From: Patescibacteria group bacterium
GTDB taxonomy: Bacteria; Patescibacteriota; Minisyncoccia; Minisyncoccales; RBG-13-36-15
DNA length: 64,000 nt
NCBI GenBank assembly: GCA_022574775.1
Contig: JACZRI010000003.1
Span: 34,308-98,307 of the forward strand
Direction: 5' to 3'
In this document: positions 3,744 to 62,817 of the stretch, one piece after another
Layout of the letters: every line of letters starts with the position of its first letter
Position numbering within the stretch: the first letter of the stretch is position 1
Position numbers and translations under genes: made by a program
Notes under the pieces: model-generated
The model's input: only the letters and a program-made list of their open reading frames with translations
Told to the model about the DNA's origin: nothing
Databases searched by the model: none

Positions 3744-4760
3744 GTGTTTAAGGATAAGGTATACAATAAGAAGATGAAAAAGACGAGTTTGCAAAAGTTA
3801 CTACCAGGTTTAAAGAGAAATGTTTTACTAAAAAACTATACTACTTTTAAAATTGGGGGTGCCGCCCAATTTTTTTTTGTTGCGAAAAATAAAAAAGATG
3901 TAATGAAAGCAGTCCAAACGTCCAAAAAATTAAAGCTTCCATTTTTTATTCTAGGAGAGGGAAGTAATTTGTTGATATCTGATAGGGGATTTAAAGGGTT
4001 AGTTGTCAAAATACGAAATACGAAATACGAGATACCCCGCACCAGAACAAGTTCGGTGCGGGGCAGGCAAAACATTCTGGTTTATGCAGAAGCTGGGGTT
4101 TCTTTCCCTGTTTTGGTTAAGGCAACGACTGAATTGGGATTGTCTGGATTAGAGTGGGCAGGTGGATTGCCAGGTACTCTAGGTGGAGCAATAAGGGGTA
4201 ATGCAGGAGCATTTAGAGGAGAAATAAAAGATGTTATTTTGGAAGTTGAAGCTTTGGATGAAAAAGGTAATTTAAAAACATTATCTCGAAAGCAATGTAA
4301 TTTTTCTTATCGATCCTCTATTTTTAAAAAAAATAACTGGATTGTTTTATCAACTGCGCTAAAACTGGGAAAAGGAAATAAAAAATTGATTCAGTCGATT
4401 GCAAAAAGTCATATAAGATATCGAGAAGAAAAACATCCACTTGAATATCCTAATGCCGGCAGTATTTTTAAAAACTGTGACCTCAAAAAAATTCCAAAAA
4501 GACTAAGAGCCAGTTTTAATAAAGTTGTAAAGACAGATCCATTTCCATTAATACCTTCGGCCCACCTTATTTCAGAAGCTGGATTGAAAGGATTAAGAGT
4601 TGGCCAGGCAGAAGTTTCAACCAAGCACCCAAATTATATTGTTAATCTGGGTAATACTACAGCAAAAGATGTAATAAAATTAATAAATTTAGTAAAGAAA
4701 GAAGTAAAAGATAAATTTGGAATAGTATTAGAAGAGGAAATAAAACTTGTAGGGTTTTAA
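3744..4760 (+). CDS. murB: UDP-N-acetylenolpyruvoylglucosamine reductase MurB (alternative start at 3774); carries a 36 nt in-frame palindromic insertion at 4036-4071
   Basis: NYTTFKIGG and GEGSNLLISD FAD-binding motifs plus a MurB C-terminal domain. The PRTRTSSVRGRQ segment has no counterpart in reference MurB alignments. Confidence 0.8.
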   Translation: MFKDKVYNKKMKKTSLQKLLPGLKRNVLLKNYTTFKIGGAAQFFFVAKNKKDVMKAVQTSKKLKLPFFILGEGSNLLISDRGFKGLVVKIRNTKYEIPRTRTSSVRGRQNILVYAEAGVSFPVLVKATTELGLSGLEWAGGLPGTLGGAIRGNAGAFRGEIKDVILEVEALDEKGNLKTLSRKQCNFSYRSSIFKKNNWIVLSTALKLGKGNKKLIQSIAKSHIRYREEKHPLEYPNAGSIFKNCDLKKIPKRLRASFNKVVKTDPFPLIPSAHLISEAGLKGLRVGQAEVSTKHPNYIVNLGNTTAKDVIKLINLVKKEVKDKFGIVLEEEIKLVGF

Positions 4761-5081: not shown

Positions 5082-5114
5082 CCCCGTACCAGTTGGCGCG
5101 GGGTTTTTTTATTT
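5082..5114 (+). terminator. Rho-independent terminator
   Basis: CCCCGtaccagttggcgCGGGG hairpin followed by T9. Confidence 0.55.
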
Positions 5115-12556: not shown

Positions 12557-13966
12557 ATGTCAAAGAAAAACCTCTATTTTAGTCTTGCCTCTGTTCTTAT
12601 TTTGTTTTTCTTGGCTGCGAATTTAAGTTATCCAAAATATTTTAATCAAGGGGTAGATTTCATTAATTCTAAATTCCAGATTCAGGATTCAAAACTCAGA
12701 ATCCCGCATTTTCCAGAGATTCCATTCAAGTTAGGACTGGACTTGCAGGGAGGAAGCCATCTTTTATATGAGGCTGACTTGTCACAAATAGATCCCAAAG
12801 AGCAAGATTCTGCGATGGATGGTTTGAGGGATGTGATTGAAAGACGGGTCAACCTTTTTGGGGTTGCTGAACCGGTTGTTCAGATTCAGGAAGTGGGGGG
12901 GAGACTTGGGCTAATTGTAGAATTGGCAGGGATAAAAAATGTCGGAGAAGCCATTGAGATGATCGGAGAGACCCCCTATCTTGAATTTAAGGAACAGAGG
13001 TCAGAGGGTGAGACACAAAAAATCCTTGATAAACAAAAAGAAGTTGAGGGCAAGACTTCCGAAGAATTTCAACAAATTTCTGATTGGCAGTTGGCCTTTG
13101 AAGATCCTTATTTTAAAGCCACCTCTTTAACCGGGAAATACCTAGAAAAAGCAGAACTTAATTTTGACCCGACTACAAATGAACCATTAGTGTCGCTTTC
13201 CTTTGACGATGAAGGTTCAAAAATTTTTGAAGAACTGACCTCAAGAAATATCGGAAAACCTCTTCCAGTTTATGTTGATCAATTCCTAATTTCTGCCCCG
13301 GTTGTACAGGGAACTATTTCAGGCGGAAGGGCCCAAATTACAGGTAACTTTACTATTAATACGGCAAAAGAGTTAGCTAGGAATCTTAATGCGGGAGCTC
13401 TTCCGGTTCCAATTAATTTAATCTCTCAACAGACAGTAGGGCCAATTCTTGGCAAGATATCTCTGGAAAGGAGTTTGCGGGCAGGAATTTTCGGATTTTC
13501 AGCTGTTATTCTCTTTATGATTCTTTTTTATCGGTTGCCCGGAGTTTTAGCCTCTATATCCCTGCTTATTTATCTGACTTTTATTTTAGCCATTTTTAAG
13601 TTAATTCCCGTAACTTTAACTTTAGCAGGCATCGCGGGCTTAATTTTGTCAATTGGAATGGCAGTTGACGCGAATATTTTAATTTTTTCCAGAATGCGGG
13701 AAGAATTAAAAGAAGGCAAAGGTTTTTTAATCAGCGTAGAGGAAGGATTTCGAAGGGCTTGGTCTTCCATAAGAGACGGAAATTTTACCACATTAATTGT
13801 GGCTTTAATTTTATTTGGTTTTGGTACGAGTTTCGTTAAAGGATTCGCTTTAGTTTTAAGCTTGGGAGTCATTGTAAGCATGCTTTCTGCAATTTTCATT
13901 ACAAAAAATCTTCTCAAACTGTTTGTCAATACAAGGTTTGAAAAAATAAGTTGGCTGTGGAAATAA
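12557..13966 (+). CDS. secD: Protein translocase subunit SecD
   Basis: Periplasmic domain followed by a 6-TM SecD/SecF region (LDLQGGSHLLYE, GIAG..LSIGMAVDANI). Confidence 0.85.
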   Translation: MSKKNLYFSLASVLILFFLAANLSYPKYFNQGVDFINSKFQIQDSKLRIPHFPEIPFKLGLDLQGGSHLLYEADLSQIDPKEQDSAMDGLRDVIERRVNLFGVAEPVVQIQEVGGRLGLIVELAGIKNVGEAIEMIGETPYLEFKEQRSEGETQKILDKQKEVEGKTSEEFQQISDWQLAFEDPYFKATSLTGKYLEKAELNFDPTTNEPLVSLSFDDEGSKIFEELTSRNIGKPLPVYVDQFLISAPVVQGTISGGRAQITGNFTINTAKELARNLNAGALPVPINLISQQTVGPILGKISLERSLRAGIFGFSAVILFMILFYRLPGVLASISLLIYLTFILAIFKLIPVTLTLAGIAGLILSIGMAVDANILIFSRMREELKEGKGFLISVEEGFRRAWSSIRDGNFTTLIVALILFGFGTSFVKGFALVLSLGVIVSMLSAIFITKNLLKLFVNTRFEKISWLWK

Positions 13967-13976
13967 TGAACTAATT

Positions 13977-14014
13977 TTATCCTTCGATAAACTCAGGACA
14001 CTTCGACTTGCTTG
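13977..14014. repeat. GC-rich palindromic repeat, family B (core ATCCTTCGAnAAnCTCAGGACACTTCGACTT), truncated copy between secD and secF
   Basis: 37 of 40 nt identical to 25962-26001. Related copies lie at 53343 and 63676. Confidence 0.6.
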
Positions 14015-17616: not shown

Positions 17617-19227
17617 ATGAATAAAGAAATAACACTTTTTGCAGAAACTACTTTCAGGAATTTGAGAAAGAAGTTTGGAATTAAGCTTGATGATAGAAGG
17701 AGACATGTTTATATCATAGGAAAAACCGGGATGGGAAAAACCGTGTTGCTTGAAAATATGATAATTCAAGATATTCAGCAGGGCAAAGGAGTAGGTTTTG
17801 TTGATCCTCATGGGGAGGCTGCGGAAGGATTGCTTGATTTCATTCCCTCCAACAGGATTAATGATGTAATTTATTTTAACCCTGCTGATCTGGAACATCC
17901 CATCGCTTTTAATATTATGGAGAAAGTGGATGTTGAGCATCGTCATTTGGTCGCAGGAGGATTAATGGGAGTTTTTAAAAAAATCTGGCCAGACGTCTGG
18001 TCAGCAAGAATGGAATACATTTTGAATAATTGTATTTTGGCTCTTTTGGAATACCCGGACTCAACCTTACTCGGAGTAAACCGGATGTTGGCCGATCCTG
18101 ATTATCGAAAAAAAGTCGTGGAAAAAGTTACAGATCCTATGGTAAAATCATTCTGGCTTCAAGAGTTTGCTAGGTATACTCAACGCTACGAGGTGGAGGC
18201 AACAGCTGCTATCCAGAATAAAGTCGGACAATTCATTTCAGCTCCTTTAATCAGAAATATTATTGGCCAGGTCAAGTCCACACTTGATATGAGGGATATT
18301 ATGGATAAAGGCAAAATTTTAATTTTGAATTTATCCAAAGGAAGAATAGGAGAAGATAATTCTCGGTTATTGGGGGCTCTTTTAATAACTAAATTGCAGT
18401 TAGCTGCTATGTCCCGCGTAGATGTACCAGAGGATGAGCGAAGAGATTTTTTTCTTTATGTTGATGAATTTCAGAATTACGCAACAGAGTCTTTCGTTAA
18501 TATTTTATCTGAAGCAAGGAAATATAGATTGTCCTTGATTTTGGCTCATCAGTACATTACCCAGATGGAGGAAACAGTAAGAGACGCAGTATTTGGAAAC
18601 GTGGGAACTATTATCGCTTTTCGGGTGGGAGCAGAAGATGCAGAATTTTTAGAAAAAGAATTTGTTCCTGAATTTACTGCCCAGGATCTAGTTAATTTAG
18701 CCAAATATAATATTTATTTAAAGCTGATGATTGATGGAATAGCAGGCTCTCCATTTTCTGCAGGGACTTTTCCTCCTTTTCCAAAGCTAGAGCATTCAAA
18801 TAGAGAGAAAATTATCAAGGCATCTAGGGAGAGATATGGGACGAAAAAAGAATTGGTAGAAGAGAAAATTATCAGATGGACAGGTATTGTAAACTCACTT
18901 CCACCCACTTCCGCCCAGACTGTTCTTTACGATGCAAAATGCTCACAATGCGGGAAACAGACAAAGGTTGTTTTTCCTCCAGATGGAGTGAGGCCTACTT
19001 ATTGTAAATCCTGCCGGAATAAAATGAAAAAAAGTGAGGCGCAAAGAGAGAGTGGAGAAGCTTCTATTTCTTTTAAGGAAGCCTTGAAAAAAGAACCAAC
19101 CTCTTTTTCTCCCAGAAAATTAAACAGAGAACCTTTTAAGAAAAGAAAAAACGTTAATGTAGAGGAATTAAAGAAAACATTAGATGAAATCTTAGAAAAA
19201 AGAGAAAATAAAGATTCCCAACAATGA
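17617..19227 (+). CDS. FtsK-HerA superfamily ATPase, TraD/VirD4 (type IV coupling protein)-like, with a C-terminal Cys4 zinc ribbon
   Basis: Walker A YIIGKTGMGKT within H-x-YIIG...VDPHGE context, Walker B FFLYVDEFQNY, and CSQCG...CKSCRNK. Confidence 0.55.
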   Translation: MNKEITLFAETTFRNLRKKFGIKLDDRRRHVYIIGKTGMGKTVLLENMIIQDIQQGKGVGFVDPHGEAAEGLLDFIPSNRINDVIYFNPADLEHPIAFNIMEKVDVEHRHLVAGGLMGVFKKIWPDVWSARMEYILNNCILALLEYPDSTLLGVNRMLADPDYRKKVVEKVTDPMVKSFWLQEFARYTQRYEVEATAAIQNKVGQFISAPLIRNIIGQVKSTLDMRDIMDKGKILILNLSKGRIGEDNSRLLGALLITKLQLAAMSRVDVPEDERRDFFLYVDEFQNYATESFVNILSEARKYRLSLILAHQYITQMEETVRDAVFGNVGTIIAFRVGAEDAEFLEKEFVPEFTAQDLVNLAKYNIYLKLMIDGIAGSPFSAGTFPPFPKLEHSNREKIIKASRERYGTKKELVEEKIIRWTGIVNSLPPTSAQTVLYDAKCSQCGKQTKVVFPPDGVRPTYCKSCRNKMKKSEAQRESGEASISFKEALKKEPTSFSPRKLNREPFKKRKNVNVEELKKTLDEILEKRENKDSQQ

Positions 19228-20297
19228 AGGTACTTTCAGATTTTGGTTTTGAAAATAAAAAAGTTTTGATGAGATGTGATTTTGATGTTCCCCTCGATGA
19301 AAAGGGGAATATTTTAGATGACTTTAGAATTGAACGGTCAATTCCCACAATTGTATATTTAACGAAAAAGAATGCAAAACTTATTTTAATGTGCCATCTG
19401 AAAGGATTTGGCGACGAGATAGTGAGCGTAGCTCCAATCCAGAAGAGATTAGCGGAATACCTGGATTGCCCGGTAATAAAAGCTAAAAATTGTGTTGGCA
19501 AGGAAATTGAAGACTGGATTTCGAAAATGTCTCCAGGAGATATTTTGCTCTTGGAAAATTTAAGATTTTATGCAGGCGAGAAAGAAAACGATCAGGAATT
19601 TGCCAGGAATTTGGCAAAATTAGGAGATATTTATATTAATGATGCTTTTGCTACTTGCCACAGAAAGCATGCTTCAATTGTTGGAGTGCCAAAATATCTA
19701 CCATCGGCAGCAGGGTTGGTTTTAATGGAAGAGATAAGGATATTGTCTAAGATCAGGAAAAATCCAGTAAGACCCTTAATAGCAATAATGGGGGGTACCG
19801 TTCAGGAAAAAAAAGGATTAATGTTCGTGGAAAAGATGTCACAAATCGCAGATTTTGTTTTAGTCGGCGGCCTAATTAAAAAATCAATTGAAAAAGAGAA
19901 ATTTTCTTTTACCAGTCCTCAGAAAATTATCCTTCCAGTAAAAGAAGCTATGTCTGACTTTGATTTAGGGCCAGAAACCTTGAAAATTTTTAAAGAAAAA
20001 ATTTCTCAGGCAAAAACTATCTTTTGGTCGGGACCTGTGGGGAAGATTGAAGAAGAAAGATTTTCGAAAGGAACTATGGAAATTGCCCAGGCAATTATCA
20101 GCGCTTCGGCTTTCAAAGTAGCAGGAGGGGGAGCAACAATTGATTTTCTAAGAGACCATAATTTAGCTTCCAAATTTAATCATCTTTCCACGGGAGGGGG
20201 ATCTGCATTGGCTTTTTTAGCAGGGGAGAAATTGCCAGGTATTGCCGCCCTCGAAGAGGGCGAGCCTCGCTCAGTGAAACTGAGCGGGAAGCCTTAA
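19224..20297 (+). CDS. pgk: Phosphoglycerate kinase with an atypical C-terminal extension (EEGEPRSVKLSGKP) built from two GC-rich hairpins
   Basis: RCDFDVPLDE N-terminus, GGGA..DFL, and a ...GGGSALAFLAGEKLPGIAAL C-terminus. Confidence 0.9.
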   Translation: MKVLSDFGFENKKVLMRCDFDVPLDEKGNILDDFRIERSIPTIVYLTKKNAKLILMCHLKGFGDEIVSVAPIQKRLAEYLDCPVIKAKNCVGKEIEDWISKMSPGDILLLENLRFYAGEKENDQEFARNLAKLGDIYINDAFATCHRKHASIVGVPKYLPSAAGLVLMEEIRILSKIRKNPVRPLIAIMGGTVQEKKGLMFVEKMSQIADFVLVGGLIKKSIEKEKFSFTSPQKIILPVKEAMSDFDLGPETLKIFKEKISQAKTIFWSGPVGKIEEERFSKGTMEIAQAIISASAFKVAGGGATIDFLRDHNLASKFNHLSTGGGSALAFLAGEKLPGIAALEEGEPRSVKLSGKP

Positions 20298-21554: not shown

Positions 21555-21598
21555 TATACGAATGCTATACGAACAAATTATTTGTATCATTCGTATGT
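21555..21598. promoter_or_regulatory. Repeat array TATACGAA x2 (11 bp period), a CAAATtATTTG palindrome, and an inverted ATTCGTAT
   Basis: TATACGAA at 21555 and 21566; ATTCGTAT at 21591. Confidence 0.45.
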
Positions 21599-21742
21599 TA
21601 TTAGCCCCAGAACCAATCCTCACTTCGTTCGAATGGTACGGGGCAAGCATTAATTATGGTTTAACTTGTTTGGAGTTTCCTATGCCCGCCCCGTATTTCC
21701 CGACTTGTCGGGATAGTACCGGGGTATATTAGTGTCGCGTTT

Positions 21743-25477: not shown

Positions 25478-25853
25478 GATTTTTAATGTCCTAGCAAGTC
25501 TATAAGCCGAATTCTGTATTTGTGTGATCATTTGTCTGGGCCCCGATTTACATCTGAGCTCAAGCGAACTACTCTTTCACAAAAATTCTAGATAAACCCA
25601 GAATTTCTGATTTGTTCTTGCACCCAATAAGGATTTAGCCGTTTCACTCCTACATTGCTGCAGGACTACTCCGACAATAGTCGGAGTGCTCAACCTTTCG
25701 GTTTCGCGCGTCTCTGTTCGCACCTCTAGTCTTACGACCGACGGCCGTTAACCGCTATATTTTTTGACCCCGATATCTATTCGGAGAAATGGTGTTCGGA
25801 CTTTCCTCCCCCTGTCATTGCTGGCAAGGAGTAATCACCCAACTTACTAGGAC
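25478..25853 (-). ncRNA. rnpB: RNase P RNA, bacterial type A
   Basis: The minus strand reads GGGGGAGGAAAGUCCGAACACC (P4 5' strand), GGAGUGAAACGGCU and ACAGAAUUCGGCUUAUAG (P4 3' strand). P1 pairs UCCUAGUAAGU with ACUUGCUAGGA, and the region is GC-enriched. Confidence 0.8.
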
Positions 25854-25961
25854 AATTATATTGTATCGATTTAGACAAAATTTGTCAAGCTTAAGAATTC
25901 TCATTTGAAAAAGATGTCAAAAAAGATTAAAATAAGTTATTCGTGTTGATACTAGATTAAA

Positions 25962-26046
25962 GTTATCCTTCGACAAGCTCAGGACACTTCGACTTACTTG
26001 CACTGAGCGAGGCCTGAGCAGAGCGAAGGACGAGTCGAAGTGTGAC
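25962..26046. repeat. Family B palindromic repeat, full composite copy immediately upstream of and overlapping the murJ start
   Basis: CCTTCGacaaGCTCAGG...CCTGAGCagagCGAAGG and ACACTTCGACT...AGTCGAAGTGT form interleaved inverted pairs. Confidence 0.6.
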
Positions 26047-27768: not shown

Positions 27769-29607
27769 ATGGAAGAACGAAAGAACATAATAAATTTCTG
27801 TATTATTAGCCATATAGATCATGGAAAGTCAACTTTATCTGATCGTTTCTTGGAGCTTACAGGCACTGTTTCAAAAAAGAAAATGCGGCCCCAGTATTTG
27901 GATTTAATGGATCTGGAAAGAGAGAAAGGGATTACCATCAAAATGCAGCCAGTAAGGATGTCCTATACCTTAAACGCCAAACCCTATATTCTAAACCTTA
28001 TTGACACGCCGGGTCATGTTGATTTCTCGTATGAAGTTTCAAGATCCTTGGCTGCAGTTGAGGGCGCAATATTATTGGTTGATGCGACAAAGGGAATTCA
28101 GGCGCAGACTATACACAATTTAGAATTGGCGAAAAAACCCCGATACTATTCATCTTCTGCGGAGTTACGGGGCAGGCAAAATTTCGTAATCATTCCAGTT
28201 GTTAATAAGATTGATTCGTTGTATGCGCGAGTTGAAGAAGTAAAGGCGGAAATTTCCCAGGTTTTAAATGTTGAGGAACGGGAAATTTTATCTATTTCAG
28301 CGAAAAACGGCACCAATGTAGAAGAACTTCTCAAAGTTGTGATAGAAAAAATTCCAAAGCATACTGGCAGCGAGGATGCTCCTTTCAAAGCGCTCATTTT
28401 CGACTCTAAATATGATTCCTTCAAAGGAATAATCGCCTACATAAGAATTTTTGAAGGGAAGATTAAAACAGGAGAGCAGATTTATTTAATAGGAGGGAAG
28501 TCAAAGTCTATTGTGAAAGAGGTAGGGTATTTTAAGCCGGGTTTAACCCCGGCTTTAGAGCTTAAAGCCGGGGAGATCGGGTATTTGGCTACTGGCATTA
28601 AGGAGCCTGGAAGGGTAAGAGTGGGAGACACCATTACGAAATTAAATACTGCTGAAATTAAACCATTGCCGGGCTATAAGGAGCCGAAGCCTGTGGTTTT
28701 TGCCAGTTTATATCCTGAAAGCCCAGAGGATTTTGACCTTCTCAAAGAAAGTTTAAACAAATTAGAACTGTCCGACCCTTCTTTTACGTTTGAGCAAGAA
28801 GCAAAAGAGATGCTGGGAAGAGGGTATCTCTGTGGATTTTTAGGTTCGTTGCATGCTGAAATTGTGATTGAGAGGCTTCAAAGAGAATTTGGACTGCATT
28901 TGATAATTTCTCATCCTTCGGTGGTATATAAAATTATTGATAAAAAAGGAAAGGAAGTTTTAGTTTTTTCTCCTATTGATTGGCCCGATGTATCTTCAAT
29001 CCAAAATACTGAGGAACTCTGGGTGAAGTTAGAAATTATTGTTCCCAAAAAATATTTCGGCAAAATCTTCAAGGTTTTAGAAACAACTAAAGGAAAGCAT
29101 ATTGAGAACAAGTTTTTTGGGAAGGAGCAAGTCTTGTTGATTTATGAGGTTCCTTTGCGAGAAATAATAAAAGACTTTTACGACAAACTAAAAGGAGCTA
29201 CAGAGGGCTTTGCCTCAATGAATTATGAAATTTTAGGTTTTCGAAAGGCAGATTTGGTGAAGTTGGATATTTTGATTGCCGGCAAGAAGGAGAAGGCATT
29301 TTCTAAAATTATCCCCAAAGAAAATACTTTTTTGGAAGGCAGAAAGATTGTAAGCAAATTAAAAGAAGTCTTGCCTCCTCAACAATTTGCTTTACCATTG
29401 CAGGCTGTTATCTCCGGGAAAATTATTGCAAGAGAAACACTTTCTGCGAGAAGAAAGGATGTTCTGGCATCTATCTACGGCGGAGATTATACGCGAAAAA
29501 AGAAACTGTTGCAAAGACAAAAAAAAGGCAAGAAGAAACTAAAAGGGAGATCCTTGCCAATTAAGATCCCCCCCAAAGTGTTCTTAGAAATTTTCAAAAG
29601 CTCTTAG
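27769..29607 (+). CDS. lepA: Elongation factor 4 (LepA); carries a 42 nt in-frame palindromic insertion at 28139-28180
   Basis: G-domain motifs HIDHGKST, DTPGH and NKID plus the LepA C-terminal domain. The PRYYSSSAELRGRQ segment is absent from reference LepA between QT..N and NKID. Confidence 0.9.
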   Translation: MEERKNIINFCIISHIDHGKSTLSDRFLELTGTVSKKKMRPQYLDLMDLEREKGITIKMQPVRMSYTLNAKPYILNLIDTPGHVDFSYEVSRSLAAVEGAILLVDATKGIQAQTIHNLELAKKPRYYSSSAELRGRQNFVIIPVVNKIDSLYARVEEVKAEISQVLNVEEREILSISAKNGTNVEELLKVVIEKIPKHTGSEDAPFKALIFDSKYDSFKGIIAYIRIFEGKIKTGEQIYLIGGKSKSIVKEVGYFKPGLTPALELKAGEIGYLATGIKEPGRVRVGDTITKLNTAEIKPLPGYKEPKPVVFASLYPESPEDFDLLKESLNKLELSDPSFTFEQEAKEMLGRGYLCGFLGSLHAEIVIERLQREFGLHLIISHPSVVYKIIDKKGKEVLVFSPIDWPDVSSIQNTEELWVKLEIIVPKKYFGKIFKVLETTKGKHIENKFFGKEQVLLIYEVPLREIIKDFYDKLKGATEGFASMNYEILGFRKADLVKLDILIAGKKEKAFSKIIPKENTFLEGRKIVSKLKEVLPPQQFALPLQAVISGKIIARETLSARRKDVLASIYGGDYTRKKKLLQRQKKGKKKLKGRSLPIKIPPKVFLEIFKSS

Positions 29608-29636: not shown

Positions 29637-29845
29637 AGCGGAGCGAATTCAGGCAAGATTCGAGGCGCGAGGAGCGATGCGATGCCGAAGTGCATCGTGA
29701 GCGATGAGCAACAAAGAAGCTTGCCTGAATTCGCTCCGCCCGAAGGGAAACTGAAAAATGGCTAATTTCTTTGTTGCTCCTCCTTGAAGTAGTTTCTAAC
29801 TACTCCTTTGTCGTCGCGTCGCGAAATTACCTCATTTTTCAGTTT
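29637..29845. repeat. Interleaved long inverted repeats in the lepA/mscS convergent intergenic region
   Basis: Stem A is 21/22 bp (29637-29657 with 29719-29739). Stem B is 13 bp (29700-29712 with 29767-29779). Stem C is 14 bp (29748-29761 with 29832-29845). Small hairpins GTAGTT-tcta-AACTAC and CGATGC-cgaagt-GCATCG are also present. Confidence 0.6.
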
Positions 29846-34330: not shown

Positions 34331-34446
34331 CTGTGGATATAATTTTAGTACGGGGTAAATAGGACTTGGTTCGCCTGCCCCGCTGTGCCTCCCCAGTAAC
34401 CTTGAGCATAGTTCGAGAGACCGAGAGGTGTTATTTACGAATTCTA

Positions 34447-34470
34447 AAATCGCCAAGAAGGCGGTTTTTT
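34447..34470 (+). terminator. Rho-independent terminator (member of a repeated terminator module)
   Basis: CGCCaagaaGGCG hairpin followed by T6. The same roughly 50 nt module recurs at 40872-40922, and its core at 46483-46508 and 44072-44128. Confidence 0.6.
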
Positions 34471-39502: not shown

Positions 39503-39618
39503 TAAATATTCGATAAAATAAAGATATTTTGAGAGTAGATATATAACCAAAAAATCGCAAAAACGGCGGTTTTTCTTGATTGTTTTGTCAAATCAAAAAA
39601 TTGAACTTTCAACATCTT

Positions 39619-40895: not shown

Positions 40896-40930
40896 TTCTA
40901 AAATCACCAAGAAGGCGGTTTTCTTTTATT
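40896..40930 (+). terminator. Rho-independent terminator (repeat of the 34416-34468 module)
   Basis: CACCaagaaGGCGG hairpin followed by TTTTCTTTT. The upstream 30 nt are also shared with the 34416 copy. Confidence 0.55.
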
Positions 40931-40934
40931 AAAG

Positions 40935-41340
40935 AAAAGAGGGGAGCACGCCTGACTGACGCAACTCCCCTTGTTCGTTCGAAGACTCTGAGCACCTATT
41001 AAGAGAGGGCTATTTCACTGGCGACTTCACGGAAGCTGGCGCCCCCGCTTCATAGTCTCGCCCCTATTCTACACATTCTAAGAGGTGTTCCCTCCAACGG
41101 TATACTCCGCGAGTCAGAACCACTGGGAGGTTGAACCCAGCTCTCCCATCCATGTGGAGATTATCCCAACCAACGACTAGTCCTTTTTCCGAACGAACAT
41201 AGTTTTTTTATAACAATCCAAATAACGTGTCAATAGGGCAACAGAAAATCGTCAACCTGTCCGCCTGTGGAAGAAAAGCATGCCTCACACCGTCGAGTCA
41301 AACTCGACTGGTGCGGGGGTCCACGGCTACCAGTCGCTTA
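40935..41340. ncRNA. Candidate structured ncRNA in a GC-rich (about 50%) non-coding segment; identity unresolved
   Basis: 400 nt with no credible ORF, marked GC enrichment as seen for rnpB, and multiple GC hairpins (GGGGAGC...GCTCTCC, CTGGG-aggttgaa-CCCAG, GGTGCGGGGGTCCACGG). Confidence 0.3.
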
Positions 41341-44035: not shown

Positions 44036-44071
44036 ATTTAAATAAACCAAATATAAACTCATCTAATAAAA

Positions 44072-44128
44072 AAATCGCCAAGCCCTAAACCAGAACAAGT
44101 ACGGTTCAGGGTAAAAAGGCGGTTTTTT
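44072..44128 (+). terminator. Rho-independent terminator whose loop carries a nested 33 nt palindromic insertion (44083-44115)
   Basis: AAAATCGCCAAG[CCCTAAACC-AGAACAAGTAC-GGTTCAGGG-TAAA]AAGGCGGTTTTTTT. The flanks equal the intact terminator module found at 34447 and 46483. Confidence 0.55.
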
Positions 44129-44272
44129 TAGTAGAATTGTTTGATGAAAAAGAAGACTTTGATGGCCAGCTTGAAAAATTTCTTTATTTAGAACCTCTCT
44201 TTTTTTAATTTATAATTAGATAGAGTAGATAAAAAAAACTTCAACTAAGCCTGTGGATTTAAGTCTGGTATT

Positions 44273-46219: not shown

Positions 46220-46482
46220 ACAAACTCGTTTTTAACTTATAAATATTAGATTAATCATATCACGGTTTGGATTTTTACTTGAACCATATGTCATTTCACG
46301 GCAGAACCATAATGAGATATTAAGCTAGGAGTTTCGGATCAATTAATTTCTCCTTTGCATCAGCTTCGTTAAACACGATCGTTTCTCATATCATCCTAAA
46401 AACAATCCGAGAGTTGCTTGCTCTGAATTTATTGAAGGGTTGTCTCGGGCCCGACTTTTTTTATAGCTTTTAACGAGATTTA

Positions 46483-46508
46483 AAAATCGCCAAGAAGGCG
46501 GTTTTTTG
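46483..46508 (+). terminator. Rho-independent terminator (same module as 34447)
   Basis: AAAATCGCCAAGAAGGCGGTTTTTTG. Confidence 0.6.
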
Positions 46509-52274: not shown

Positions 52275-52877
52275 ATGAAAATGAGAACAAAACACAGAAT
52301 CTTTATTGCTATTAATTTCCTTCCAGAAATAAAAAAGGAGTTCCTTTTTTATCAGAAGAAATGGGAAGATTTACCGGTTCGATGGACGAAAAAAGATAAT
52401 TTACACTTAACTTTGGTTTTTATCGGCTCTGTGGAGGATGAAGGTTTACTAAAAATCCTTGAAACTGCAAGGGAAGTAGCGAAAAATTCCCAACCTTTTT
52501 CAATACATTTTCAAAGAATTCTTCTTGGTCCGCCTGACAGAACTCCTCGAATGTTTTGGGTAGAAGGGGAAAAGAATCAAGATTTGAGTGTCTTAAAAAA
52601 TAATTTAGAAAAAGAATTGTCAGAGTTAAAATTAAGACGAGAGCTTCGAGAATTCAAAGTCCATATTACCATAGGAAGAATTAAAATATTAGAATGGCGC
52701 CAGCTTCAAAAGAAACCAAGAATTGAAGAAAAAATCTCCTTAACGGTATCGGTAAATTCTATTGAAGTTATGGAGAGTAAATTAAAACCAACTGGGCCGG
52801 ACTATTTTGTTTTAGAGTCAATCAAGCTTGGACCCCTTTCTTTTTCAAAAAAGAAAGGTGATCCCCCGGTACTATAA
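52275..52877 (+). CDS. thpR: RNA 2',3'-cyclic phosphodiesterase (ThpR/LigT, 2H family)
   Basis: Two H-x-T/S-x motifs (HLTLVF and HITIGR). Confidence 0.65.
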   Translation: MKMRTKHRIFIAINFLPEIKKEFLFYQKKWEDLPVRWTKKDNLHLTLVFIGSVEDEGLLKILETAREVAKNSQPFSIHFQRILLGPPDRTPRMFWVEGEKNQDLSVLKNNLEKELSELKLRRELREFKVHITIGRIKILEWRQLQKKPRIEEKISLTVSVNSIEVMESKLKPTGPDYFVLESIKLGPLSFSKKKGDPPVL

Positions 52878-53091
52878 ATCCTTTCGGATTTGAGTACGGG
52901 GCTAGAATACGAAATACATACGTTATTTTACAAGATGCTCGCCCCGTACCATGCGAACGCAGTGAGAATTGGTACTGGGGCAACCTCCAAAGAAAAAATA
53001 TAATGTTATCGCTCGCTCGGCGCCGGTAAGCCGTAGCTCGCGATATTTGTTCGAGACCTTTTTAAAAAAAGGTTCTCGAGCTCTCAAAATT

Positions 53092-54453
53092 ATGAAAAAG
53101 GTTCATTTCATTGGCATTGGAGGAATTGGGGTTTCTGCATTGGCCAGATTTTATTTGAAAAATGGGTGGGAAGTTTCAGGTTCTGATTTGGAAAGTTCAG
53201 AAACCATAACGGCGCTGGAAAAATTAGGAGTTAAAATTTTTGTCGGCAAACATAAAGTTAAAAACTTGAATCCTCAAGCTGATTTGGTTATTTACAGCCC
53301 AGCCATTAAATCGGACAATCCAGAGTTGCTGAAAGCTAAAAGCTATCCTTCGGCAAGCTCAGGATCCCGAGCAGCGTCGAGGGGTAAGTTGGAAGCTATC
53401 TCTTATCCTCAAGCTTTAGGCCAATTAACAAAGAAATATTTTACCATTGCTGTCTCTGGGACGCACGGAAAAAGCACAACCGTAGCCATGATTAGCCTGA
53501 TTTTAATAAAAGCAGGACTTGACCCAACTGTAATTTTAGGAACAAAACTTAAGGAATTCGGCAACAGCAATTTTCGAATGGGCAGCAAACTGCCAACTAC
53601 TAAATATAAACTGCCTTTTCTGGTGATTGAGGCTGATGAATGGGGAGCATCTTTTTTGTATTTTTGGCCAAAGATTATTGTTTTGACCAACATTGAGAAA
53701 GAACACCTCGATTATTATAAAAACTTAAACCATATTTTGAAAACTTATAAAAAATATATTTCCCATTTGCCAAAAACCGGCGTTTTGATAGCAAATAGAG
53801 ATGACCAAAATATAAAAAAAATTATAAGAAAAGAAAAAACGTCATTTTATTCTCTAAGCGATACGGAAGCAAAGAAATTAAAAAATATTTTGGAAGTTCC
53901 GGGAGTTCACAATATTTCTAATGCTCAAAGCGCCTTGACAACTGCCAGAGTTCTAAAAATCCCAGATAGGATCTCTTTTAAAGCTCTTTCAGAATATAAA
54001 GGAGCCTGGCGACGGTTTGAGATTTTTACTAAATATCTAGCAGCTCGGCCCTATACCTTAATTTCAGATTATGCTCATCATCCAACAGAGATAAAAGCTA
54101 CCCTTCAAGCCGCCAGAGAAAAATTTAAGGGAAGAAAAATATGGGCTGTTTTCCAGCCCCATCAATATCAAAGAACATATTATTTTTTTAAAGATTTCGT
54201 TAGAGCTTTTGATTTGGCAGACGAAATTATCTTAACTGAAATTTATCAGGTTACAGGAAGAGAGGAAAGAAAAATTTTAAGAAAAGTCAGCGCTAGAAAA
54301 TTAGCAGTAGATATTAGAAAAAGAAGGAAAAAAGTCCACTTTGTTAAAGATTTTGAGAAAATCCCAAAATTTATTAAAACAAGAGTCAAAGGAAAAGATG
54401 TTGTTTTAGTAATGGGAGCAGGAGACATTTATAAGATAATCGACTTTTTATAA
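53092..54453 (+). CDS. murC: UDP-N-acetylmuramate--L-alanine ligase MurC; carries an in-frame GC palindromic insertion at about 53343-53384 (SASSGSRAASRGK)
   Basis: IHFIGIGGIGVSALA, GTHGKSTT, and the Mur ligase middle and C-terminal domains. The track ORF extends upstream to 52969, but the likely start is MKKVHFIG. Confidence 0.8.
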   Translation: MKKVHFIGIGGIGVSALARFYLKNGWEVSGSDLESSETITALEKLGVKIFVGKHKVKNLNPQADLVIYSPAIKSDNPELLKAKSYPSASSGSRAASRGKLEAISYPQALGQLTKKYFTIAVSGTHGKSTTVAMISLILIKAGLDPTVILGTKLKEFGNSNFRMGSKLPTTKYKLPFLVIEADEWGASFLYFWPKIIVLTNIEKEHLDYYKNLNHILKTYKKYISHLPKTGVLIANRDDQNIKKIIRKEKTSFYSLSDTEAKKLKNILEVPGVHNISNAQSALTTARVLKIPDRISFKALSEYKGAWRRFEIFTKYLAARPYTLISDYAHHPTEIKATLQAAREKFKGRKIWAVFQPHQYQRTYYFFKDFVRAFDLADEIILTEIYQVTGREERKILRKVSARKLAVDIRKRRKKVHFVKDFEKIPKFIKTRVKGKDVVLVMGAGDIYKIIDFL

Positions 54454-58642: not shown

Positions 58643-59359
58643 ATGGAGGTGATTCCGGCCATTGATATCATTTCAGGTAAATGCGTAAGGTTAACGAGAG
58701 GGGATTATCAGTTAAAAAAGATTTATAACGATACTCCAATTAAGACAGCCAGACGTTTTGAAAGGGCCGGGTTCAGGAGATTACATCTTATAGATTTAGA
58801 AGGGGCAAGGGAGGGAAAAATAAAAAATTGGAAAAGCATAAAAAATATCGCAGAGAATACCAACCTTTTATTGCAAGTTGGCGGTGGCATTCATTCACAA
58901 GGAGATATAAAAACACTTTTTGACTTAGGGGTAGATAGAGTAATTTTAGGAACAGTTGCTATTAAGGAGTCTCAAAAACTGAAAAAGTTCTTAAAAAAAT
59001 TTGGAAACGAGAAAATTGCTGTTGCAGTTGATATAAGGAAAAACAAAATTTGCTACCGAGGTTGGCGAAAAGAGAAGAAAATTACTCTCCGTACATTCTT
59101 AAAGAGTTTGATTCGATTGGGAATAAAAACCGCTATTGTCACTGATATTGAGCGGGATGGCATGCTCAGAGGCCCGAACTTCTCCCTTTACAAGACACTG
59201 ATAAAGACCTTCTCAAATTTAGAAATAATCGCCTCGGGAGGAATAAGAACAAAGGAAGATTTGCAAAAACTTTCCAAAATTGGACTTTCTGGAGCAGTCG
59301 TGGGAAAAGCAATATATGAAAAGAAAATCCTGCTCAAGAATCTTAAAGCCTTTCTATGA
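58643..59359 (+). CDS. hisA: ProFAR isomerase HisA
   Basis: VIPAIDIISGKCVRL, the (beta/alpha)8 HisA/HisF fold, and a GG..SGAVVG phosphate-binding end. Confidence 0.8.
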   Translation: MEVIPAIDIISGKCVRLTRGDYQLKKIYNDTPIKTARRFERAGFRRLHLIDLEGAREGKIKNWKSIKNIAENTNLLLQVGGGIHSQGDIKTLFDLGVDRVILGTVAIKESQKLKKFLKKFGNEKIAVAVDIRKNKICYRGWRKEKKITLRTFLKSLIRLGIKTAIVTDIERDGMLRGPNFSLYKTLIKTFSNLEIIASGGIRTKEDLQKLSKIGLSGAVVGKAIYEKKILLKNLKAFL

Positions 59360-59952
59360 TCATTATCATTAACTATGGAATGGGAAACCTTAGGTCTCTC
59401 GCTAACGCTTTCCAGTTTTTAGGGGAAAAGGTAAAAATAATTGATAACCCAAAAGAAATCGAAAGGGCCCAAAAGATCGTATTTCCCGGTGTGGGGCATT
59501 TTGGGGAAGCAATGAGAAGTCTAAAAACAAGAAAGATTGATGGAGCGATTCAAACGCGTATTCATAAAGGAATTCCTTTTTTGGGTATCTGTCTGGGACT
59601 TCAGTTATTATTGGAAGAAAGCGAAGAGGCGCCAGGAGTGAAGGGCTTCGGAGTCTTTAAAGGAAAAGTTTTGAAATTTCAAAAAGTGAAAATTCCTCAA
59701 ATTGGCTGGAATCAAATAAAAATTCAAAGGAAAACGAAAATTCTTAAAGGTATTCAAGATAAAAGCTTCGTTTATTTTATGCACAGTTTTTATGTTAAAC
59801 CTTCAGATAAAAAGATTATAGTTTCGCAAACTCATTATGGAAAAGATTTCTGTTCAACTATTGAATCAGAAAATATCTTTGGAGTTCAGTTTCATCCCGA
59901 AAAAAGTGGAGCGGTTGGACTCCAAATTCTAAGAAATTTTATTAAACTTTAA
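59356..59952 (+). CDS. hisH: Imidazole glycerol phosphate synthase glutaminase subunit HisH
   Basis: Class I GATase with the GICLGLQ catalytic Cys and a FHPEKS His-Glu end. Confidence 0.8.
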   Translation: MIIIINYGMGNLRSLANAFQFLGEKVKIIDNPKEIERAQKIVFPGVGHFGEAMRSLKTRKIDGAIQTRIHKGIPFLGICLGLQLLLEESEEAPGVKGFGVFKGKVLKFQKVKIPQIGWNQIKIQRKTKILKGIQDKSFVYFMHSFYVKPSDKKIIVSQTHYGKDFCSTIESENIFGVQFHPEKSGAVGLQILRNFIKL

Positions 59953-60731
59953 TGTTAACCAGAAGAATAATACCTTGTTTAGATTGTGATTTGGGCATAA
60001 AAGGAGGAAGAGTGGTTAAAGGAATAAAATTTAAAAAAATAAGATATGCTGGTCTTCCATGGGAATTGGCTGAAAGGTATTATAAAGAAGGAGCCGATGA
60101 AATTGTCTTTTTAGATATTACTGCTTCTTATGAAAAAAGGGCGACAATGATAGAAATTGTCGAGAAGACTTGCCAAAGAGTGTTTATTCCAATTACGGTT
60201 GGAGGCGGAATTAAAAACATTGAAGATGCTCAAAAATTATTTAAGGCAGGAGCCGATAAAATCTCGATTAACACAGCTGCAATCCAAAGGCCTAAATTGG
60301 TTCAAGAATTAAGTAAAGCTTTCGGCTCTCAAGCAGTAGTAGTGGCAATTGACGCTAAAAGAAGATATAAAAAAGGAAGATGCTGGTTTGAGTGTTCAAT
60401 TTATGGGGGTAGAAAATTTACTGGAGTTGATGCTATTTTCTGGGCAAAAAAGGCAGCTAAACTGGGGGCTGGGGAAATTCTTTTAACGAGCATGGACAGA
60501 GATGGGACAAAACAAGGCTTTGATTTAGAACTCAATAAAAAAACTTCAGAAGCAATTTCCATTCCAGTCATTGCTTCGGGAGGAGTGGGAGAAAAAAGAC
60601 ATTTCCTCGAAGTTTTCAAAAAAACCAAAGTTAATGCCGCTTTGGCTGCCGGAACTCTGCATTTTAACAAAATATCAATACCAGAACTAAAAAAATATCT
60701 CAAAAGTAAAGGAATTAATGTAAGAGTATGA
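59952..60731 (+). CDS. hisF: Imidazole glycerol phosphate synthase cyclase subunit HisF
   Basis: RIIPCLD, DELVFLDI-like and SGGVG motifs. Confidence 0.85.
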   Translation: MLTRRIIPCLDCDLGIKGGRVVKGIKFKKIRYAGLPWELAERYYKEGADEIVFLDITASYEKRATMIEIVEKTCQRVFIPITVGGGIKNIEDAQKLFKAGADKISINTAAIQRPKLVQELSKAFGSQAVVVAIDAKRRYKKGRCWFECSIYGGRKFTGVDAIFWAKKAAKLGAGEILLTSMDRDGTKQGFDLELNKKTSEAISIPVIASGGVGEKRHFLEVFKKTKVNAALAAGTLHFNKISIPELKKYLKSKGINVRV

Positions 60732-61054
60732 AAAATTTAACAAAGAATCTTGACTGGAAAAAATTAAATGGTTTAATTCCGGTAATTGCCCAGGATTTTA
60801 AAACAGAAAAAGTTTTAATGCTCGGTTTTATGAATAGAGAAGCTCTAAAGAAAACTTTAAAAGAAGGAAAAATTACTTATTTCAGTCGGGTAAGAAAAAA
60901 ACTCTGGACAAAAGGAGAAACCTCTGGGCATTTCTTGCAAACTAAAGCAATTTGGGTTGATTGCGATAATGATACTCTTTTAATTAGGGTGAAAGCACAG
61001 GGTAATGTTTGTCACACCGGTCATAAAAGCTGTTTTTATAGGAAAATTCTATGA
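60728..61054 (+). CDS. hisI: Phosphoribosyl-AMP cyclohydrolase HisI (no fused HisE)
   Basis: LIPVIAQD...SRVRKKLWTKGETSGH...DCDNDTLLIRV. Confidence 0.8.
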   Translation: MKNLTKNLDWKKLNGLIPVIAQDFKTEKVLMLGFMNREALKKTLKEGKITYFSRVRKKLWTKGETSGHFLQTKAIWVDCDNDTLLIRVKAQGNVCHTGHKSCFYRKIL

Positions 61055-61935
61055 AAAAAGAAAAGAAAATAAAAATAGGAATTCCAACCAGATTTTTACT
61101 TCTACCAACTTTAACAATTTTTAGAGCTGCAGGTTACAATCTCGAAGTTGATGAGAAAACCTTTCAAGTAAAAATTGATGATCCAGAAATCGAATGTTTT
61201 CCGGGAAGAACGCGAGAAATAGCTGAAAGAGTGGGAGATGGTATTCTGGATGCTGGAATTTCAAGGAAAGATAGAGTTTTGGCAAGTGGGGTCAAAGTCC
61301 GTGAAATTTGCGACTTAGATTATAACAGAACGGAGACCTGGGAAAAGGGAAAAATTGTTTTAGTTGTGCCAAAGACCTCAAAGATTAAAACCTTGAAGGA
61401 TCTCAATGGGAAAACAATCATTACTAGATTTCCTGAAATTACGAAAAAATTTTTAAAAAGGCATAAAGTCTCAGCCAAGATTGAAACTTCTGATACTCCA
61501 AACGAGTTTCAGATAGGCAAATTAGTTGATGCAGGAGTCGAATTTACTTTGACCGGCAGCACTTTGGCGGCTAACAATCTAAAACCTCTGGCAGTTTTAA
61601 TGGAAACTTCGGCAATTTTTATTGCTAATGAAAAATCCCTTAAAGATAAATGGAAAAGAGAAAAGATAGAAAACTTAGCGATTTTACTTAAGGGAGCAAG
61701 GTTGGCTCAAGAAATGGCAGGATTGATGCTTCATGCCTCAAATAAAATGATGGAAGAAGTTCTTGAGATTTTACCAGCCCTGAAAAAACCAACCGTAACT
61801 CAATTAAGAGGTGAAAACTGGTTTGATGTTCTTACCGTTGCAAATAAAAAAGAGATAAGAAAAATTATTCCAAGACTTAAAAAAATTGGCTGTACCGACA
61901 TCATTGAATTTCCTTTAAATAAAGTTGTAATCTAA
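61051..61935 (+). CDS. hisG: ATP phosphoribosyltransferase HisG (long form), copy 1
   Basis: KIGIPTRF, DAGISRKD and the LTGSTL PRPP-binding region, plus a C-terminal regulatory domain. Confidence 0.7.
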   Translation: MKKEKKIKIGIPTRFLLLPTLTIFRAAGYNLEVDEKTFQVKIDDPEIECFPGRTREIAERVGDGILDAGISRKDRVLASGVKVREICDLDYNRTETWEKGKIVLVVPKTSKIKTLKDLNGKTIITRFPEITKKFLKRHKVSAKIETSDTPNEFQIGKLVDAGVEFTLTGSTLAANNLKPLAVLMETSAIFIANEKSLKDKWKREKIENLAILLKGARLAQEMAGLMLHASNKMMEEVLEILPALKKPTVTQLRGENWFDVLTVANKKEIRKIIPRLKKIGCTDIIEFPLNKVVI

Positions 61936-61941
61936 ATATAT

Positions 61942-62817
61942 ATGGCTTTGAAACTAAAACTTGGAATTCCCAAAGGATCGCTTCAAAATTATACTTTAAA
62001 AATATTTAAGGAAGCTGGATTTAATATTGATATCCCTGAAAGGGGGTATTTTTTAAAAATTGATGATCCGGAAATTGACTGCTTTTTATTGAGACCCCAG
62101 GAAATCCCGAAATATATTGAAAAAAGAAAATTAGATTTAGGCATCAGCGGCGATGATTGGATTTTAGAGTCAAGGGCAAAAGTAATTGAGGTTTGTGACT
62201 TGAAATACGCGAAACAAGAAATGAAAAAGGTCAAATGGGTTTTAGCAGTTCCTGAAAATTCAAAAATAAAATCTATAAAAGATCTTGAAGGAAAAATCAT
62301 TTCCACGGAAATAGTTAATTTGGTAAAAGACTATTTAAGAAAAAATAAAGTTAAGGCCAAGGTTGAATTCTCCTGGGGGGCGGCCGAGATAAAACCTCCA
62401 AGGTTTGCTGACGCCATTGTTGATATCACCGAAACCGGGGCTTCTCTCAAAGCTCATAATTTAAAAATTCTAGATACAATTTTGGTAAGTTCAACAAAAC
62501 TAATCACGAATAAGGAAGCTTGGAAAAATAAATGGAAAATAAAAAAAATAAAAGATCTGGCTCTTTTACTTCAAGGGGCTGTTCGAGGCGAAGGGGCAGT
62601 AAGTTTAATAATGCATGTTCCCGGGGAGAAATTAAACAGAATTTTAAAAGTTTTACCAAAATTAAAATCGCCGACTGTCAGGAAAACCGCTGGTCAAAAT
62701 TGGTATGATGTTATAATTTCTTGCAAAGAGGAAGAGGCTAGAGAATTAATTCCAAAGTTAAAAAGAATGGGCGGTCAAGGGATTGTTGAATTCCCAATAA
62801 TTAAACTGGTGCCGTAA
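61942..62817 (+). CDS. hisG: ATP phosphoribosyltransferase HisG paralog, copy 2 (tandem duplicate)
   Basis: Same architecture as copy 1: LGIPKGSL, LGISGDDW and TETGASL. Confidence 0.7.
   Translation: MALKLKLGIPKGSLQNYTLKIFKEAGFNIDIPERGYFLKIDDPEIDCFLLRPQEIPKYIEKRKLDLGISGDDWILESRAKVIEVCDLKYAKQEMKKVKWVLAVPENSKIKSIKDLEGKIISTEIVNLVKDYLRKNKVKAKVEFSWGAAEIKPPRFADAIVDITETGASLKAHNLKILDTILVSSTKLITNKEAWKNKWKIKKIKDLALLLQGAVRGEGAVSLIMHVPGEKLNRILKVLPKLKSPTVRKTAGQNWYDVIISCKEEEARELIPKLKRMGGQGIVEFPIIKLVP

Follow-up and report, generated by a model that had tools for sequence, protein, structure and literature searches.

A 39-nt in-frame insert in lepA of a Patescibacteria group bacterium is probably a copy of a dispersed REP-like hairpin repeat

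The lepA gene (LepA/EF4) on contig JACZRI010000003.1 of a Patescibacteria group bacterium (assembly GCA_022574775.1) carries 39 extra bases that are probably a copy of a small non-coding hairpin repeat. The repeat resembles repetitive extragenic palindromes (REPs) and is dispersed both here and in many low-GC uncultured bacteria. We analyzed 64 kb of the contig (64,000 nt, positions 34,308 to 98,307, hereafter, the window), a stretch that is AT-rich (~37% GC), has positive GC skew throughout, carries almost all of its genes on the + strand, and encodes proteins matching Patescibacteria. A second insert of the same general kind lies in murB, the gene for UDP-N-acetylmuramate dehydrogenase. A first-pass annotation of the sequence had proposed that lepA and murB share a mobile-looking palindromic element; the observation stands and lies well beyond chance, and its interpretation is right in substance, with the corrections given below. 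The two host genes and their inserts are as follows.

27769–29607, + strand: lepA (LepA/EF4), host gene; intact, 612 aa, with the G motifs and all five domains present
28138–28176, + strand: lepA hairpin-repeat insert, 39 nt, encoding PRYYSSSAELRGR; decayed member of the CCCCGATAC...GTTACGGGGCAGG subfamily
3744–4760, + strand: murB (UDP-N-acetylmuramate dehydrogenase), host gene; annotated start probably 3774
4035–4067, + strand: murB canonical hairpin repeat, 33 nt, encoding PRTRTSSVRGR

Alignment of the window LepA with its 120 nearest homologues and with the solved structures 2ywe and 4w2e bears out the proposed in-frame insertion. The 13 extra codons are absent at this site from 119 of the 120 homologues, the nearest five included, and both structures show the same 13-residue gap. 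The spacing between QAQT and NKID is 31 residues in the window protein, compared with 18 in 118 of the homologues, 16 in one, and 43 in the remaining one (P0066, described below). Within the protein, LELAKK is followed by PRYYSSSAELRGR and then by QNFVIIPVVNKID. The empty site reads GCT AAA AAA|CAG AAC in one relative (L004) and GCG AAA AAG|CAA AGT in another (L002), where the window has GCG AAA AAA [CCCCGATACTATTCATCTTCTGCGGAGTTACGGGGCAGG] CAA AAT. The insert had been delimited as 42 nt at 28139–28180; because the final CAA (Gln) codon is native, it is in fact 39 nt, or 13 codons, at 28138–28176, with a 1-nt ambiguity due to a C on both sides (28138–28176 or 28139–28177). It begins with CCCCG and ends with CGGGGCAGG, as the murB insert does, and its GC content is 56%, vs 37% for the genome. 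The neighbors of lepA, murJ and a DivIC-like gene, are the same as in relatives. Two separately made assemblies, a 155,698-bp MEGAHIT contig and a Logan contig, encode the identical 612-aa protein, so an assembly artefact is ruled out.

The lepA insertion is secondary and falls in a G-domain surface loop that separates the helix following G3 from the NKID strand. An AlphaFold2 model, moderate overall (mean predicted local distance difference test score, pLDDT, 65) with a well predicted G domain, places the insert (residues 125–137, pLDDT <50) between helix 112–122 and strand 140–146, which leads to NKID. As DNA, the lepA copy folds at −4.7 kcal/mol (z = −1.3), with a 5-bp terminal stem and a few inner pairs, and the murB copy at −12.9 kcal/mol (z = −5.3). 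The term palindromic, originally applied to the lepA insert, therefore describes that copy only in part.

The relatives of the lepA copy reveal its subfamily. A metagenome scan for lepA-type arms (CCCCGATAC...GTTACGGGGCAGG) returned 11 loci sharing both the 9- and the 13-nt arms. One of them, L130, holds an intact 39-mer, CCCCGATACCATCCGCCTTCGGCGGAGTTACGGGGCAGG, which divides into CCCCGATAC CA TCCGCC TTCG GGCGGA GTTACGGGGCAGG with the inner stem intact; this copy is intergenic, located after a stop codon, and is not a lepA fragment. The lepA copy differs from L130 at five positions, and because every one is G/C in L130 and A/T in lepA, the insert is an old, AT-decayed member of a sister subfamily with GATAC/GTTAC arms and has lost most of its inner stem. 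The P0066 LepA (63% identical) holds a decayed 39-nt copy of the same subfamily at the same codon, and in the loop of that copy is nested a better-preserved copy of 36 nt.

The lepA genes of relatives carry short inserts encoded by hairpins. Locus L001 (4340–4440) contains a lepA with a nested double copy at the window's insertion site. The lepA genes of L002 and L001 share a second site, after a DWP motif, at which a different repeat type is inserted (TSLNERRASRGGP / VSSNERMVRGGGL), and those of P0004 and P0040 have ALRGVA inserts in common at a third site. Within the window lepA itself, positions 28547–28573 form a perfect palindrome with an 11-bp stem, CCCCGGCTTTAGAGCTTAAAGCCGGGG (DNA fold z = −5.0), that encodes the conserved PALELKAG at unchanged length and is not palindromic in three relatives; it might reflect chance or repeat-driven conversion. 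Just downstream of lepA is a GC-rich hairpin cluster (29650–29703), where the independent Logan assembly contig also breaks.

The murB insert is an intact copy of the canonical 33-nt subfamily. A covariance model built from other genomes only assigns it 47.8 bits (E = 2e-8), and it differs from the recurrent 33-mer CCCCGTACCAGAACAAGTTCGGTACGGGGCAGG by a single compensatory change of a T-A to a C-G pair. The closest murB relative (L005/P0122; 89% nucleotide and 87% protein identity) has an empty site: its protein reads KYEI-RNTYLY vs KYEI-PRTRTSSVRGR-QNILVY in the window, and the DNA reads GAG ATA CGA AAC in the relative vs GAG ATA [CCCCGCACCAGAACAAGTTCGGTGCGGGGCAGG] CAA AAC here. Solved MurB structures are without the insert residues, and AlphaFold2 places low-confidence residues 91–96, in the insert region, at a beta-hairpin turn. 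As first noticed, the two window inserts share their termini and codon phase (CCC CGx ... CGG GGC AGG); their sites also have similar flanks, AAAAWA|CAAAAY. The GC-rich 14-mer CGGGGCAGGCAAAA that they have in common occurs exactly twice in the window, at 4059 in murB and 28168 in lepA, and not once in any of 100 shuffles. The proposal that both genes hold the same element is right at the level of one hairpin superfamily and wrong at the level of subfamily, canonical 33-mer in murB and GATAC/GTTAC 39-mer in lepA. Recent activity is plausible for the murB copy but is not shown for the decayed lepA copy.

Filled and empty sites interleave in a MurB tree and require at least five gains or losses at one codon. 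The window sequence is filled, unlike that of its sister; the site is occupied in P0124 and P0125 but not in P0126; and P0128, P0134, and a PLDSARGK clade each have empty sisters. The inserts of the window and of L006 are identical at 30 of 33 positions (91%), loop included, in genes that are 68% identical, and nearer lineages carry quite different variants of 42 and 39 nt. We read these same-site inserts as repeated arrivals from a conserved master pool. Under an alternative history, each of the lepA and murB inserts dates from a single entry deep in a Paceibacteria-like clade and was then precisely lost from most lineages, leaving the family a fossil. The decayed P0066 copy at exactly the same lepA codon, the visible age of the window lepA copy, and the filling of the murB site in several separate clades all fit such a history. 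For lepA, however, it would demand many scar-free deletions, leaving exactly 18 residues in 118 of 120 homologues with just a 1-nt flanking repeat to guide them, and the similarity of distant murB inserts relative to nearer ones fits separate arrivals better. We regard a single ancient insertion as unlikely, though it is the strongest of the alternatives to a dispersed repeat.

That the two inserts belong to an insertion-repeat family, as had been suggested, is confirmed by further copies in the window and in many other genomes. The family unit consists of the stem-loop 5'-CCCCG(G)TAC..loop..GTAC(C)GGGG and, 3' to it, an unpaired tag, CRRG; the top strand of the element reads CCCC...GGGGCAGG. 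The tags seen are CAGG, CAAG, CGGG, and CGAG (CYYG on the complement), usually followed by CA. Canonical copies have a GC-rich stem of 9–13 bp overall, composed of a 9-bp outer and a 3–4-bp inner stem, and a variable loop. Our window census covers 64 kb, in which the pattern CCCCN{8,38}GGGGCRRG occurs five times against 0.25 expected (0 of 100 shuffles reach five); a looser reading gives ~10 copies, or ~1 per 7 kb, and the covariance model scores 7–8 copies besides murB at 8–22 bits. The additional window copies are listed here.

21605–21647, + strand: intergenic copy, left half of the first dimer (tags facing); found by pattern and covariance model
21685–21724, − strand: intergenic copy, right half of the first dimer, after a 37-nt spacer; pattern, covariance model, and fold
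52864–52905, + strand: copy overlapping the 3' end of a LigT-like open reading frame (ORF), left half of the second dimer; covariance model and fold
52938–52980, − strand: intergenic copy, right half of the second dimer, 89% identical to the 21605 copy; pattern, model, and fold
41279–41318, − strand: degenerate intergenic copy, CCCCGCACCAGTCGAG...GGTGTGAGGCATG; covariance model and fold
44083–44112, + strand: related hairpin that shares its loop ACCAGAACAAGT with the murB copy and interrupts the loop of a terminator-like repeat (AAAATCGCCAAG^AAGGCGGTTTT)
5082–5103, − strand: short related hairpin CCCCGCGCCAACTGGTACGGGG with no tag; weak (8.8 bits), and terminator-like on the + strand, where a T-run follows
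34351–34382, − strand: partial copy, 3' end CGGGGCAGGCGA with no recognizable 5' arm; just downstream of tRNA-Gln

In the two dimers (21605+/21685− and 52864+/52938−) the tags face each other, but the arms of each have unrelated loops and so cannot form the single hairpin fold of a REPIN (a REP doublet forming a hairpin). The LigT-like ORF (52275–52877) takes its final four codons (PPVL) and its stop codon (52863–52877) from the copy at 52864; hairpin repeats therefore also remodel C-termini. Genic copies come in lengths of 33, 36, 39, and 42 nt in the window and its relatives, and intergenic copies, in the window and L002, measure 36, 40, 42, 43, and 43 nt. We rejected an ATACGAA-type heptamer, AATACGAAATAC, as part of the element: it lies beside three copies (4010–4035, 21560–21600, 52906–52925), but its 13 occurrences do not significantly exceed the 7.7 expected, and in murB it is native coding sequence (IRNTKYEI).

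The family extends well beyond this genome. A scan of one genome per species with the pattern CCCCGTACCN{4,34}GGTRCGGGGCRRG recovered at least 120 loci, with at least 43 copies, among the matches listed, in genomes of <52% GC, where a 22-base GC-rich pattern is not expected by chance. Matches in high-GC genomes (Streptomyces and others) were set aside as probable chance hits or generic terminators. The hosts are Paceibacterota, Nealsonbacteria, Nomurabacteria, Kerfeld-, Uhr-, and Peregrinibacteria, Saccharibacteria, and many Omnitrophota, together with metagenome-assembled genomes (MAGs) labelled as Elusimicrobia, Pirellulales/Planctomycetota, Spirochaetota, a cyanobacterium, and Gammaproteobacteria. 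Such labels are possibly wrong, and we treat Patescibacteria plus Omnitrophota as the secure host range. Units range from 27 to 51 nt and include, as recurrent variants, the 33-mer matched by the murB copy, a covarying sister with the loop region AGAGCAAGCTC, and two variants, of 27 and 36 nt, that are typical of Omnitrophota. The search pattern leaves the inner stem free, and this stem covaries strongly: pair 11–26 is CG in 8 copies, GC in 8, AU in 7, and UA in 2, and none of 500 shuffles matches the score.

Searches of Rfam with the window yielded only RNase P and tRNAs at the gathering threshold, and the murB copy and one dimer had no match at a permissive E-value. We found no description of the family in Rfam or the searchable literature, our search for palindromic repeats of the candidate phyla radiation (CPR) being poorly targeted. 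A scan of viral contigs yielded no indication of carriage by phages: the canonical pattern has eight matches, all in contigs of 47–68% GC and five of them identical and from one phage type. A larger composite element or array around the L131, L134, and L139 copies was also rejected, these being just mixed clusters of unrelated small repeats.

Two observations from other genomes concern further host genes. In three loci (L064, 5288–5320; L020, 1083–1115; L083, 263–295) from MAGs labelled Paceibacterota, Saccharibacteria, and Parcubacteria, an RluD-like pseudouridine synthase gene contains the canonical 33-mer, always at one and the same codon, which follows KPxGxxVH-P; the DNA on either side is divergent, which suggests another hot spot. 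A UvrD/PcrA-like ORF of 1109 aa from Saccharibacteria (L068, 2114–5440) contains an intein-like insertion along with one sense and one antisense hairpin copy.

That copies sit in frame in housekeeping genes holds for the family generally. Among the matches listed, 16 of the 43 canonical copies from other genomes (~37%) lie at least 30 codons inside ORFs of at least 200 aa. Fifteen of these 16 have a length divisible by three, compared with 10 of the 27 elsewhere (Fisher p = 3e-4), and nearly all genic copies (16 of 17) run in the sense direction (p = 3e-4); the bias is milder outside ORFs, where 18 of 26 are co-oriented with genes. All three sense phases are used, giving hydrophilic peptides rich in Gly, Pro, and Ser (PRTRTSSVRGR-, PVPEQVRYGAG-, and PYQSKHGTGQ-type); the antisense frames of the consensus 33-mer, read by eye, are also free of stops. 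The host genes, assigned in the foreign genomes from conserved motifs by eye and without Pfam, are unrelated and include PBP1A, UvrD (two copies plus an intein), MurF, the RluD-like gene, ArgRS, the CCA-adding enzyme, Pfk, and an ABC ATPase. To judge from these patterns, genic copies are most likely translated, and in LepA the product would be a disordered, hydrophilic loop of 13 residues.

Alternatively, the hairpin could be a functional signal and not selfish DNA, such as a DNA-uptake sequence, an RNA hairpin bound by a protein or RNase, or a translation-pausing element, and would then be selected for within genes. Consistent with this, 27–36-mers are nearly identical between genomes that carry the labels of different phyla, covariation preserves the stem, genic copies are strongly biased to the sense strand, and some intergenic copies (such as 5082) are placed like terminators. 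The sense bias is also explained by the hydrophilic peptides of the sense frames, however, and the genes and positions that house copies are unrelated to one another. Close relatives manage without copies, and copies can decay, as the one in lepA has done. Known uptake sequences are far denser than the ~1 per 7 kb found here. A functional signal thus seems to us improbable.

It is less probable still that the insert escapes translation, whether by ribosomal bypassing or by removal from the mRNA. A GC-rich hairpin inserted into essential genes of an AT-rich genome is outwardly the picture presented by the bypassed 'byp' elements of mitochondria (see below). Bypassed or spliced elements have no need to preserve frame, and bypassed ones may contain stops, whereas nearly all deep genic copies, and all of the lepA and murB inserts, are multiples of three without stops; the frame and sense biases are what selection on a translated insert predicts, and so speak against bypass or mRNA removal. 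At 39 nt and 13 aa, the insert is in addition far too short for either an intein, which needs a splicing domain of at least ~130 aa, or a self-splicing intron, whose ribozyme core takes up hundreds of nt; with no Rfam match either, both are ruled out, and no bacterial mRNA ligation pathway is known to apply to such an insert.

The weakest alternative, ordinary lineage-specific expansion of a variable surface loop with a chance likeness to murB, could appeal to the character of the site and to a covariance score for the lepA copy that is not significant by itself, yet it is scarcely credible given indel edges that fall exactly at CCCCG... and ...CGGGGCAGG, a shared 14-mer unmatched in the shuffles, 11 other loci with both arms, one of them with most of the interior, and the GC-rich composition of the insert.

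We therefore return to a dispersed hairpin repeat as the source of the lepA insert, and to how it could have arrived. None of 57 copies shows a target-site duplication of 3 nt or more, and the lepA and murB junctions likewise show none when compared with empty sites; the check for duplications that the first-pass annotation had proposed was thus negative, and a classical miniature inverted-repeat transposable element (MITE) is ruled out. Two copies sit in the loops of other hairpins (in the L001 lepA and in the terminator repeat at 44083), a hint of a single-stranded target. The lepA copy is thus inserted seamlessly. In the mechanism that we propose, insertion and equally seamless loss might proceed through a single-strand hairpin intermediate, as in the mobility of IS200/IS605 elements or of REPs driven by REP-associated tyrosine transposases (RAYTs), and a trans-acting enzyme, not found in the sampled sequence, would supply the mobilization. 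Selection would then retain only frame-preserving, sense copies in tolerant loops. The lepA copy persists because it comprises 13 stop-free codons, and its later drift to AT has cost it most of the inner stem. Among known mechanisms, such hairpin-guided, single-strand 'peel and paste' fits best, though we consider it on balance doubtful.

Several observations weigh against the hairpin-repeat interpretation or its proposed mode of movement. The covariance model gives the lepA copy just 16 bits (E = 0.14), matched at the termini alone; because this score is weak, assignment of the copy to the family draws on its termini, on the coincidence of motif edge with indel edge, and on L130. The flanks of the 57 copies display a weak preference only, for A at −1 and CA at +1/+2 (each ~54%), unlike the sharp 4–5-nt targets of IS200/IS605. 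Neither a Y1/HUH transposase nor a RAYT nor any other recombinase turned up when the ~58 window ORFs were searched with Pfam, and among 1010 ORFs in ~490 kb of low-GC loci a crude HUH/Y motif screen detected no HUH-motif ORF; RAYTs are single-copy per genome, and a sample of ~490 kb could easily miss one. No presence/absence polymorphism was seen, as independent same-strain assemblies gave the filled lepA allele only. Finally, the case for translation of the insert is built on sequence patterns, and the means of mobilization is something we infer outright. The insert is neither a general feature of related LepA proteins nor without an associated DNA repeat, 119 of 120 homologues being empty and the repeat family being real.

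A broader interpretation, which we offer tentatively and hold a little short of evenly balanced, is that the copies constitute an undescribed superfamily of tagged hairpins, CCCCGTACC-loop-GGTACGGGG-CRRG, with variants of 27, 33, 36, and 39 nt that are near-unchanged across Patescibacteria, Omnitrophota, MAGs labelled Elusimicrobia and Planctomycetota, and others. Its members would be moved seamlessly by a trans-acting single-strand DNA enzyme or by horizontal exchange, and would repeatedly hit the same codons of essential genes (at least five events in murB, three lineages in the RluD-like gene, and two in lepA). If true, the family steadily supplies new protein surface loops in ultra-small bacteria.

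The closest known counterparts are the tagged REPs, whose GTAG and CGTC superfamilies comprise imperfect palindromes of 20–40 nt with stems of 5–13 bp and loops of 2–20 nt, and include intragenic examples in Opitutus terrae and Rickettsia conorii; no transposase has been identified for the CGTC REPs (Di Nocera et al., 2013, PMC3733652). The window family likewise consists of many dispersed 20–40-nt stem-loops with variable loops and an unpaired tetranucleotide tag at one end, forms opposite-orientation dimers with adjacent tags, spans several species and phyla, adds residues inside ORFs, and, like the CGTC REPs, has no identified transposase. Its tag, CRRG(CA)/CYYG, fits neither GTAG nor CGTC, however, and its CCCCGTACC stem differs from the A/T-initiated stems of CGTC REPs. 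Its hosts, Patescibacteria, Omnitrophota, and others, fall outside the survey of PMC3733652. The genic fraction is also much higher than is typical of REPs (~37% of sampled canonical copies), and no RAYT was seen in the sampled sequence, whereas REPs can be associated with a RAYT that they flank (a REPtron). The CRRG-tagged family would represent a third class of tagged REPs.

Other systems match in part. Rickettsia palindromic elements, as far as they are summarized in PMC10969869, are selfish palindromic repeats that lie in frame in many unrelated housekeeping genes of a small AT-rich genome, where their placement at protein surfaces makes them tolerable, with copies both within and between genes, as here; those of the classic RPE-1 type (Ogata et al., 2000, 2002) are ~100–150 bp and are read in a single frame, which gives a conserved peptide. 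The present units are instead 27–51 nt, use three sense frames, are not confined to one genus, and bear no sequence relation to those elements. With IS200/IS605 and the REPIN/RAYT system the family shares hairpin-defined ends, seamless insertion and loss without duplication, an asymmetric layout with a short motif by the hairpin foot, strand bias, and copies in the loops of other hairpins; it departs from them in its weak flank preference (A | CA), in the lack of a Y1/HUH transposase in the sampled sequence, and, compared with REPINs, in the unrelated loops of its window dimers. Yeast mitochondrial GC clusters are short, GC-rich, palindromic mobile units of a compact AT-rich genome, with an optional in-frame cluster in VAR1, and the GC-rich byp elements of Magnusiomyces mitochondria, reportedly described by Lang and colleagues in 2014, are said to break the frame and to be bypassed. 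Our family resembles both in that GC-rich palindromic units enter the protein-coding genes of an AT-rich genome; unlike byps, its copies keep frame (15 of 16) and reside in bacterial chromosomes, not organelles.

Patescibacteria/CPR and Omnitrophota have tiny genomes that are regarded as poor in mobile DNA, yet their conserved proteins are known for odd insertions. The hairpin repeat provides a concrete, sequence-defined source for some of these insertions, and extends to new phyla the rare pattern of selfish DNA inside working genes known from Rickettsia. The covariance model, R1, can serve as a marker with which to find such inserts and to correct alignments, annotation, and phylogenies, and the recurrent gains at the same sites make tractable the question of how REP-like elements spread without an obvious transposase.

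The window contains other repeats as well. A terminator-like family, AAAATCGCCAAGAAGGCGGTTTT, lies downstream of several genes (34445–34469, 39550–39574, 40899–40923, 46482–46506, and 44065–44135), and in its last copy (44065–44135) the loop is split by an inserted CCCC...GGGG-type hairpin of 30 nt. Unrelated to the hairpin repeat is a second repeat family (TTATCCTTCGRCAAGCTCAGGA..., continued by GC-rich hairpins), which is present three times, at 13943–14014, 25929–26042, and 53325–53392. The last of these is in frame within a MurC-like ORF (52969–54453) and adds ~13 residues (YPSASSGSRAASRGK) that are absent from solved MurC structures. A GC-rich hairpin cluster at 20231–20294 forms the C-terminal tail of phosphoglycerate kinase (ORF 19224–20297).

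Two further features lie outside these repeats. A bacterial class A RNase P RNA (25487–25850, − strand, 125 bits) is located directly upstream of one copy of the second repeat family and of murJ. Positions 58643–62817 hold a histidine-biosynthesis cluster (hisA/hisF-like, hisH, and hisI) with two adjacent HisG paralogues, which is unusual in that Patescibacteria genomes are normally without amino-acid biosynthesis.

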